From assembly GCF_030013205.1 (NCBI RefSeq), contig NZ_CP122648.1: a DNA stretch of 64,000 nucleotides; one strand, given 5' to 3'. This document shows, in pieces, positions 21,001 through 24,000 of this stretch. Source of the stretch: Escherichia coli. GTDB taxonomy: Bacteria > Pseudomonadota > Gammaproteobacteria > Enterobacterales > Enterobacteriaceae. Position numbers: made by a program. Positions within the stretch are counted from its first letter, which is position 1. Each line of letters begins with the position of its first letter.

Positions 21001-24000
21001 TTAGCGATGTACTTCACTGCCGCACCGGAAAATCGGGTAAAAGTGGCGGGCTTGCTGATCCCCGCAACCTTAACCGCCATGCTGGTGGGAATTACCGAAC
21101 CGCTGGAATTTACCTTCCTGTTCATTTCACCGTTGCTGTTTGCGGTACACGCCGTGCTGGCGGCCTCAATGTCGACCGTGATGTACCTCTTTGGTGTGGT
21201 GGGCAACATGGGCGGTGGTTTGATTGACCAGGTTTTACCGCAAAACTGGATCCCGATGTTCAGCAACCACGCGGATATGATGCTGACCCAAATCGCCATT
21301 GGGTTGTGCTTTACCCTGCTGTACTTCGTGGTTTTCCGCACCCTGATTCTGCAATTCAACATGTGCACGCCGGGACGTGAAGATGCGGAAGTGAAACTCT
21401 ACTCAAAAGCCGAATACAAAGCCTCGCGAGGCCAAACCACCGCGGCAGAGCCAAAAAAAGAGCTGGATCAGGCTGCCGGTATCCTGCAAGCCCTGGGCGG
21501 GGTCGGCAATATCTCCAGCATTAACAATTGCGCGACGCGTTTACGTATTGCACTGCATGACATGTCACAAACGCTGGATGACGAAGTCTTTAAAAAGCTG
21601 GGAGCGCACGGCGTCTTCCGTAGTGGCGATGCCATTCAGGTGATCATTGGTCTGCATGTATCCCAGCTGCGTGAACAGCTCGATAGCTTAATTAATTCTC
21701 ATCAATCAGCAGAAAATGTTGCCATTACGGAGGCAGTATAATGACCAAATTCTCAGTGGTTGTCGCAGGCGGTGGAAGCACCTTTACACCAGGCATCGTG
21801 TTGATGCTCCTGGCGAATCAGGACCGTTTCCCGCTTCGTGCACTGAAATTTTATGATAACGATGGCGCGCGGCAGGAAGTCATTGCTGAAGCCTGTAAAG
21901 TCATCCTTAAAGAGAAAGCGCCGGACATTGCGTTTAGTTACACCACCGATCCTGAAGTGGCGTTCAGCGACGTTGATTTTGTCATGGCGCACATCCGCGT
22001 CGGCAAATACCCGATGCGCGAACTGGATGAAAAAATCCCGCTGCGCCACGGCGTTGTTGGTCAGGAAACTTGCGGACCCGGCGGAATAGCGTACGGCATG
22101 CGTTCCATTGGCGGCGTCCTGGAACTGGTGGATTATATGGAAAAATATTCACCAAATGCCTGGATGCTCAACTACTCCAACCCGGCAGCCATTGTCGCAG
22201 AAGCCACGCGTCGTCTGCGCCCGAATGCGAAAATCCTCAACATCTGTGACATGCCAATCGGTATTGAAAGCCGGATGGCGAAAATTGTTGGGCTGCAAGA
22301 TCGCAAACAGATGCGCGTGCGCTACTACGGCCTGAACCACTTTGGCTGGTGGACATCAATTGAAGATTTGCAGGGCAACGACCTGATGCCCCAGCTGCGG
22401 CAATATGTCTCTAAGCACGGTTATGTTCCACCGCAGCAAGATACACATACTGAAGCGAGCTGGAACGACACCTATGCAAAAGCGCGGGATGTCCAGGCTC
22501 TGGACCCGGATACATTACCGAATACCTATCTGAAATATTATCTCTTCCCGGATTATGTCGTTCAGCATTCCAACCCTGAACATACCCGCGCGAATGAGGT
22601 GATGGAACATCGCGAGAAACAGGTTTTCGATGCTTGCCGCGCCATTACGGCGGCAGGAAATTCAGCGGCGGGCAAGCTGGAAATTGACGAACATGCGTCA
22701 TACATCGTCGATCTGGCGGCGGCAATTGCCTTCAACACTCAGGAGCGGATGTTGCTGATTGTGCCTAACAACGGGGCAATCCATAACTTTGATGATGAAG
22801 CGATGGTCGAGATCCCGTGTCTGGTCGGGCACAACGGACCAGAACCACTGGTGGTCGGCGATATCCCGCAGTTTCAGAAAGGGTTAATGAGTCAGCAAGT
22901 GGCGGTGGAAAAACTGGTCGTGGACGCCTGGGAACAGCGTTCATATCAGCATCTGTGGCAGGCGATTACTTTATCGAAAACGGTACCGAGCGCCTCAGTC
23001 GCCAAAGCTATTCTGGATGATTTGCTGGAGGCCAACAAAGCGTACTGGCCAGAGTTACGTTAATTGTGTGGACTGGCATCCGTTGGGTGCTGGTCCGTAT
23101 TCTTTAGCACGGCTGACGGCGCATAACCAAATTTATGTTTAAAGGCTTTGCTGAAATGAAAGGAGTCGAAGAAGTTGAGCGTATCAGCGACTTCGCCAAC
23201 CGAGTTCCCTTGTTGCTTTAATAGCGATAGCGCCAGATCCAGACGTGCATCGAGGTAATATTCTTTCGGCGTCTTGCCGGTATAGCGTAAAAACAGACGA
23301 CGCAACCAGGCTTCGCTACAGGGGATCGTGGCAGCCATATCAGCTACGCTCCAGCGTTGTTGCAGACTGGCATGTAAAGTGGCAATTAGTTTTTCAATTT
23401 GCCGCCGTTGTGGATCTTTTTTACCGTCTGCGTACATAAGACAAATCCACTGATAAATAATTTTCGTCAGAAAAGCGACTGCCAGATTATTTTTTATTTC
23501 TTCTGGTGAAGTAATTAACTCAGCAACTTCGGTGAGTTCCTGATTATAAATTTCGCCATTATAAATAACGCTTTGCTGACCGACGGGAATATCCATCATA
23601 CTGGTGGGGTAAATTCCATCCAGTACTGTTCCCAGACTAAACCTTCACAGTGATAAGAGTGAATATCCATTGGCTTTAAAAATATAATACAGTTGCCATG
23701 CAGAGTTATTTGTTCGCCATTCTTTAAAAGAATTTTCCCACATCCTTGTACGGTATACACCGCAACCCATGAGTTGGCGATAAGCGGTTTCTTCTTGTCC
23801 CGCGGCCAGATCACCCGGTAATGCTCGTCGGCGTAGGTATGCCAGAGCGAGATCAGAGAAATTCCGCTGGAGATCACATTTTCGTTAATCAATAAGGGAA
23901 TATTGTACGGAGTTTCGTTTTTTACATCTGAACTTTGCAATTTTCCATTCATTTTAATATCCCTCCGGCGAATTATGCTCACAACCTGAACTTAACAGAA

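Follow-up and report, generated by a model that had tools for sequence, protein, structure and literature searches.

The yidL gene in the stretch of Escherichia coli DNA analysed here (64,000 nucleotides; hereafter, the window) is very probably a genuine homopolymer-slip pseudogene, lost a single time in an ancestor of one branch of a clone and passed on to strain ETEC4079. The window is byte-identical to positions 1–64000 of the ETEC4079 record NZ_CP122643.1, which gives the source of the strain as pig faeces from Belgium. One cytosine has been lost from a run of five (C5), most likely through replication slippage, leaving a run of four (C4). Translation from the native start now stops after residue 118, within the ligand-binding domain, and the DNA-binding domain is thereby separated from it. 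The deletion arose once within the porcine O139:H1 ST1 edema-disease clone, in an ancestor of its European/Korean branch, and ETEC4079 inherited the C4 allele from there; the same slip has also arisen independently in unrelated E. coli lineages.

The pseudogene occupies 23060..23952 on the minus strand and is 893 nt long, compared with 894 nt (297 aa) for the intact gene. The original prediction had described two overlapping minus-strand reading frames at this position, one ending in TPPV and the other starting with MMDIPV, and both are found in the ORF listing and in the sequence itself: an N-terminal ORF of 128 aa at 23596..23982, opening with GTG and ending in ...WMEFTPPV and a stop, and a C-terminal ORF of 179 aa and a stop at 23060..23599, whose N terminus reads MMDIPVGQQ. 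The suggestion that the two pieces together have the length of one AraC-type protein also holds, but the start proposed at 23982 does not. The true yidL start is the ATG at 23952, which gives an N-terminal ORF (23596..23952, minus strand) of 118 aa and a stop rather than 128 aa, and 118 plus 179 equals the 297 aa of intact YidL. Within the 5′ leader (23953..23982, minus strand), a strong Shine–Dalgarno sequence, GGAGGG, is located at 23961–23966 and serves the native ATG with a duplex energy of −10.0 kcal/mol; an obsolete 307-aa version of yidL began at the GTG at 23982. In K-12, the mapped yidL transcription start coincides with the GTG equivalent to 23982 (PMC3950696).

Alignment with other E. 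coli yidL genes, as had been proposed at the outset, revealed the lesion. Compared with intact yidL from Ec-U3, 2c3, and EC556, the window shows a single length difference, the absence of one C from the C5 run: where intact alleles have ACCCCCACC on the coding strand, the window has ACCCCACC (positions 23606–23609), and the intact GAATTTACCCCCACCAGTATGATGG correspondingly reads ...ACCCCACC... in the window. The frameshift that had been predicted is therefore present as a 1-bp gap; the region recommended for inspection (23590–23605) was a few bases off, as the tract lies at 23606..23609 (C4 on the minus strand, G4 on the plus strand). The intact C5 spans codons T115–P116, and intact YidL reads ...EFT115-P116-T117-S118-M119-M120-DIPV... 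at this point. From codons 115–116 onward, the deletion converts ACC CCC ACC AGT ATG into ACC CCA CCA GTA TGA, and the resulting frame is T115-P116-P117-V118-stop. The C4 tract is situated 7–10 nt upstream of an ATGA overlap (23596..23599, minus strand) inside GTATGATGG, in which the new TGA stop (23598–23596) is superimposed on the internal Met codon M119 (ATG, 23599–23597). This geometry follows from a shift of frame over the pre-existing ...AGT ATG ATG... and is an automatic by-product rather than a designed junction. The gene is a frameshift-class pseudogene, carrying a real indel that disrupts the reading frame present in intact orthologues.

Pfam places AraC_binding in the N-terminal ORF and HTH_AraC and HTH_18 in the C-terminal ORF. 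The latter comprises residues 119–297 and contains the complete double helix-turn-helix characteristic of the C terminus of AraC/XylS proteins (HTH_AraC E=1e-18, HTH_18 E=7e-18). The two domains no longer occur on one polypeptide, however, since the AraC-type ligand-binding (cupin) domain is truncated at residues 116–118 and the helix-turn-helix lies in another frame. On intact YidL, AraC_binding matches residues 65–129 and the helix-turn-helix region covers residues 207–284, with the DNA-binding domain extending over approximately residues 184–285 by homology to PDB 3oio, RamA, and SoxS. A break at 116–118 thus falls inside the sensor domain and not in the interdomain linker.

The intact counterpart in K-12 (b3680, P31449) is an uncharacterised AraC/XylS regulator. 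The window gene is its orthologue: it is found at the same locus, divergent from yidK–yidJ on one side and flanked by glv-like genes on the other, with 98–100% nucleotide identity and the same AraC_binding and double helix-turn-helix domains. It differs in being one C short, which splits the 297 aa into frames of 118 and 179 aa. Both divergent neighbours are intact in the window; yidK encodes a sodium:solute symporter and yidJ a sulfatase-like enzyme. The divergent arrangement suggests yidK and yidJ as likely local targets of YidL; the intergenic region between yidL and yidK (23953..24118, delimited from the gene arrangement) presumably holds the promoter or operator by which YidL would control them, and loss of yidL may affect their expression. 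YidL function has probably been lost in strains carrying C4. The K-12 yidL promoter is repressed by H-NS and activated by BglJ–RcsB (PMC3950696), a mode of control extended to ETEC4079 by homology. The literature on YidL, YidJ, and YidK function yielded nothing mechanistic beyond this control of the yidL promoter, and no characterised YidL target or phenotype was found in it, even for the intact protein. The inactivation of one uncharacterised, H-NS-silenced AraC-type regulator in a branch of O139:H1 ST1 is likely to matter very little.

The assembly of ETEC4079 was built solely from nanopore R9.4.1 reads with Trycycler and medaka, without short reads (PMC10151945), and a homopolymer shortened by one base in that record alone would therefore be suspect. 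ETEC4079 might in truth carry C5, with one base of the homopolymer dropped from the nanopore consensus: the lesion is itself a homopolymer −1, and members of the clone also differ in the length of two G-runs elsewhere in the window (G6/G7/G8 at 33592–33598 and G5/G6 in eilA). However, 15 of 5,426 complete genomes contain an exact match to an 81-bp query with the tract at its centre, and these include K_EC180, sequenced with PacBio and polished with Illumina/Pilon (PMC8071739), and the French O139:H1 ST1 isolates W13-16 and P15-25, sequenced with PacBio and Illumina and assembled with Unicycler (PMC8798679). The identical C4 is thus found in Illumina-corrected clone assemblies from two other laboratories. 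The window's haplotype also occurs with C4 in draft and Logan (run-level) assemblies (L018 and L019), and, across NCBI, ENA, JGI, and Logan, the exact 118-aa product with its TPPV end was called on 589 contigs; for the 179-aa product, the number of contigs with the exact sequence was 88. Furthermore, the presence or absence of C4 agrees with an independent SNP at 36706 that splits the clone, and a random error would not follow the phylogeny in this way. An artefact is largely refuted by these observations and is now highly improbable. The original prediction had left a choice between a genuine inactivating indel and a sequencing error, and it is the genuine indel that is favoured, since clone genomes that were sequenced independently and corrected with Illumina carry the same allele, which also fits the SNP phylogeny. 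As a practical example, comparison with Illumina-backed siblings, together with agreement with the phylogeny, can validate a frameshift in a homopolymer even when the assembly is nanopore-only and no reads are consulted.

The history of the deletion within the clone was followed over 50 kb in six clone members, with Ec-U3 as outgroup, and the resulting tree is ((ETEC4079,K_EC180),(ETEC1701,W13-16,P15-25)),EC556. ETEC4079 and K_EC180 have three derived SNPs in common; ETEC1701, W13-16, and P15-25 have two. All five C4 genomes possess a derived A at 36706, where EC556 has the outgroup G, and this Japanese isolate, which has kept C5, branches outside the C4 group. No site in the 50 kb from the six members and Ec-U3 conflicts with the tree. 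The C was lost once, on the stem of the European/Korean group, with neither reversion nor double origin within the clone. Two sites that group EC556 with ETEC4079 had raised the latter two scenarios, which were rejected because outgroup polarity shows the shared states to be ancestral. In the middle 10 kb, one SNP and the indel are all that separates EC556 from the window, so the deletion is recent. ETEC1701 and contig L019, which belong to the same clone as the window, share a C-to-T change at window position 23425 that produces G59S in the 179-aa ORF; this substitution followed the inactivation and marks a sub-branch. The C4 allele itself could be used as a minor marker to tell European/Korean genomes apart from the group of the Japanese EC556.

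Beyond the clone, the intact form predominates. The yidL region is 98–100% identical in more than 5,000 E. coli genomes, almost all of which align one base longer than the window, so the pattern is not due to chance; 5,411 of 5,426 genomes match at 95–100% identity and have the same neighbouring genes, and C5 is found in over 99% (about 99.7%) of complete genomes. A second query, based on the other common haplotype, added two complete genomes with C4 to the 15 already identified, namely 510016 (human) and EP91B (pig), bringing the total to at least 17 of 5,426 (approximately 0.3%; a lower bound). One further genome, ApSLC23, carries C6 with a linked SNP and is likewise annotated as frameshifted. 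When C4 carriers were compared over 2.2 kb, the allele was present on at least six local haplotypes, and three of these have C5 twins with identical SNPs (window/EC556, B1.H1.39/Ec-U3, and L021/2c3), from which it follows that the slip recurred independently. Singleton carriers, for example B1.H1.39 and the C6 of ApSLC23, could be assembly errors that inflate the apparent recurrence. Such recurrence is attributable to the proneness of short homopolymers to indels and to selection on an H-NS-silenced regulator that is probably weak; it is unremarkable for a gene silent under laboratory conditions in a species with so many sequenced genomes. Ordinary slippage pseudogenes, such as the glycosidase gene in 2c3 and eilA in K_EC180, likewise arise from a 1-base indel in a short run, are lineage-restricted, and are flagged by PGAP. 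The yidL lesion differs from them in nothing essential: its occurrence on several backgrounds is expected from the number of genomes available.

Changes of tract length in both directions invite comparison with the contingency genes of Neisseria, Haemophilus, and Campylobacter, in which gain or loss of one base in a coding mononucleotide run turns expression ON or OFF, as a toggle between C5 (ON) and C4 or C6 (OFF) could do here. A −1 change on at least six haplotypes and a +1 change in one genome at the same tract would accord with such a switch, as would the difference in tract length between near-identical members of the clone. The yidL tract is only five bases long, however, and far shorter than known phase-variable tracts. 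Contingency loci combine a long tract with frequent, reversible changes among close relatives, whereas the OFF alleles of yidL (C4 and C6) are rare (about 0.3% of complete genomes, with C5 in about 99.7%), clonal, and without sign of reversion. The pattern within the clone also fits one irreversible event, free of homoplasy and reversion, and some carriers have acquired second lesions that a simple switch back would not repair. A reversible phase-variable switch is, thus, extremely unlikely. Programmed ribosomal frameshifting and transcriptional slippage were considered as well and rejected, as the outgroup, like over 99% of genomes, has yidL as a single-frame 297-aa gene, and four cytosines are too short to form a slippery run.

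The separated ORFs might nevertheless remain functional if reinitiation at the AUGA yielded a 179-aa, ligand-independent DNA-binding regulator, with or without the 118-aa fragment. Isolated DNA-binding domains of the AraC family, as well as SoxS and RamA, which consist of this domain only, can bind DNA and activate transcription. Natural family members of this type (SoxS and RamA) are among the PDB matches, the ATGA overlap has the classic geometry of translational coupling, and the 179-aa ORF, intact in most carriers, holds the complete double helix-turn-helix preceded by approximately 65 residues. Its double helix-turn-helix domain is homologous to that of the activators SoxS, RamA, and MarA; unlike these, however, the ORF lacks a dedicated ribosome-binding site, begins with some 65 extra residues of severed sensor, and has suffered second inactivating mutations in some carriers. 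The internal AUG lacks a Shine–Dalgarno sequence: its best anti-Shine–Dalgarno duplex, at −3.3 kcal/mol, falls in the range given by random 20-mers, compared with −10.0 kcal/mol for the native start. The AraC_binding match is itself interrupted by the break, which does not lie in the linker, the ATGA arises automatically on the shift of frame, and the promoter is silenced by H-NS in K-12 (PMC3950696). The downstream ORF is, moreover, broken again in 3 of 10 sampled C4 contexts, by replacement of W83 with a stop codon in L016 and by an A6-to-A5 deletion in L017 and L020, and non-synonymous changes accumulate in the downstream ORF of carriers. The missing Shine–Dalgarno sequence, the second lesions, and the non-synonymous changes fit the pattern expected for neutral decay, and a functional split gene is accordingly very unlikely. 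Slightly less likely still is the proposal that the recurrent C5-to-C4 slip was positively selected rather than neutral, uncoupling the DNA-binding domain from its sensor, with the AUGA-reinitiated, sensor-less regulator rewiring yidK–yidJ or other targets in gut-pathogenic lineages, the porcine O139:H1 edema-disease clone among them. Inactivation of yidL by a homopolymer slip remains the preferred reading.

The lesion is already recorded in public annotation, and yidL is in this respect an ordinary lineage-specific pseudogene. In NZ_CP122643.1, PGAP labels 23060..23952 as ‘AraC family transcriptional regulator, frameshifted’ (yidL), and the ‘frameshifted’ label recurs in every sibling genome examined. 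It had been stated beforehand that orthologues with the identical sequence annotated as two genes would speak against a frameshift, and some GenBank records do, formally, list two genes. These records are not a true refutation: they stem from automatic annotation of the disrupted allele, and in more than 99% of genomes yidL encodes a single protein of 297 aa. The generic name ‘AraC family transcriptional regulator’ was also considered as a marker of the pseudogene in B2-type strains, and was rejected, as the yidL genes of CFT073 and 14EC001 are intact at 288 aa; their different 3′ end reflects the absence of the glv/yidP block.

Adjacent to the 3′ end of yidL, a glv-like PTS IICB gene (20125..21741, plus strand) and a 6-phospho-alpha-glucosidase gene (21741..23063, plus strand) are intact in the window, and the 3′ end of the latter overlaps that of yidL by 4 bp. 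Many other E. coli carry the glucosidase gene as a frameshifted pseudogene annotated ‘family 4 glycosyl hydrolase’ or as a remnant labelled ‘hypothetical protein’ (e.g., 2c3), and the glv block (20125–23063) is wholly absent from CFT073-type genomes. On the other side of yidL, yidK (at about 1–1336 of the sampled loci) is split into two ORFs in 4 of 10 sampled C4 contigs (L016, L017, L020, and L021), and L016 and L021 have a 283-aa yidK piece in common, yet represent different haplotypes. A split yidK may point to lineages in which the yidLKJ module is decaying as a whole, or to assemblies of low quality.

Around yidL, the window is 100% identical to several genomes of the clone, including K_EC180 over 1.1 and 10 kb, but two G-runs elsewhere differ in length between K_EC180 and the window. 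The run at 33592–33598, intergenic and downstream of ilvN, is G6 in K_EC180, G7 in most members of the clone, and G8 in EC556, and could represent either a truly unstable tract or platform-specific homopolymer error. The other, at 55198–55203, lies in eilA (54761..56458, minus strand), which encodes a HilA-family regulator of type III secretion (T3SS), and is G6 in the window and G5 in K_EC180; eilA is, correspondingly, ‘frameshifted’ in K_EC180 and intact in the window, the French strains, and EC556. The G5 represents either a mutation confined to K_EC180 or a PacBio error that escaped correction.

Between ilvN and uhpA, two adjacent genes at 33837–36843 (plus strand) encode hypothetical proteins of 431 and 485 aa, neither of which has a Pfam match at E<=0.01. 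The accession of the 485-aa protein varies among members of the clone, and in Ec-U3 this region is rearranged beside an IS1. Between yicN and nepI (46015–46675, minus strand), a gene for a RelE/ParE-family toxin overlaps a small gene with a helix-turn-helix domain, forming a putative type II toxin–antitoxin pair. The inverse autotransporter adhesin gene air/eaeX (iatC) at 48294–54709 (plus strand) is frameshifted and truncated, consisting of 48294..52556 and a residual ORF at 53828..54709, and is intact in the outgroup Ec-U3, where it measures 11.1 kb. Adjoining eilA, the minus strand at 56661–61723 encodes an IpaD/SipD-like tip protein, a YopB/SseC-like translocon subunit, and a SycD/LcrH-like chaperone, a T3SS translocon and chaperone cluster that looks like part of an ETT2-type island.
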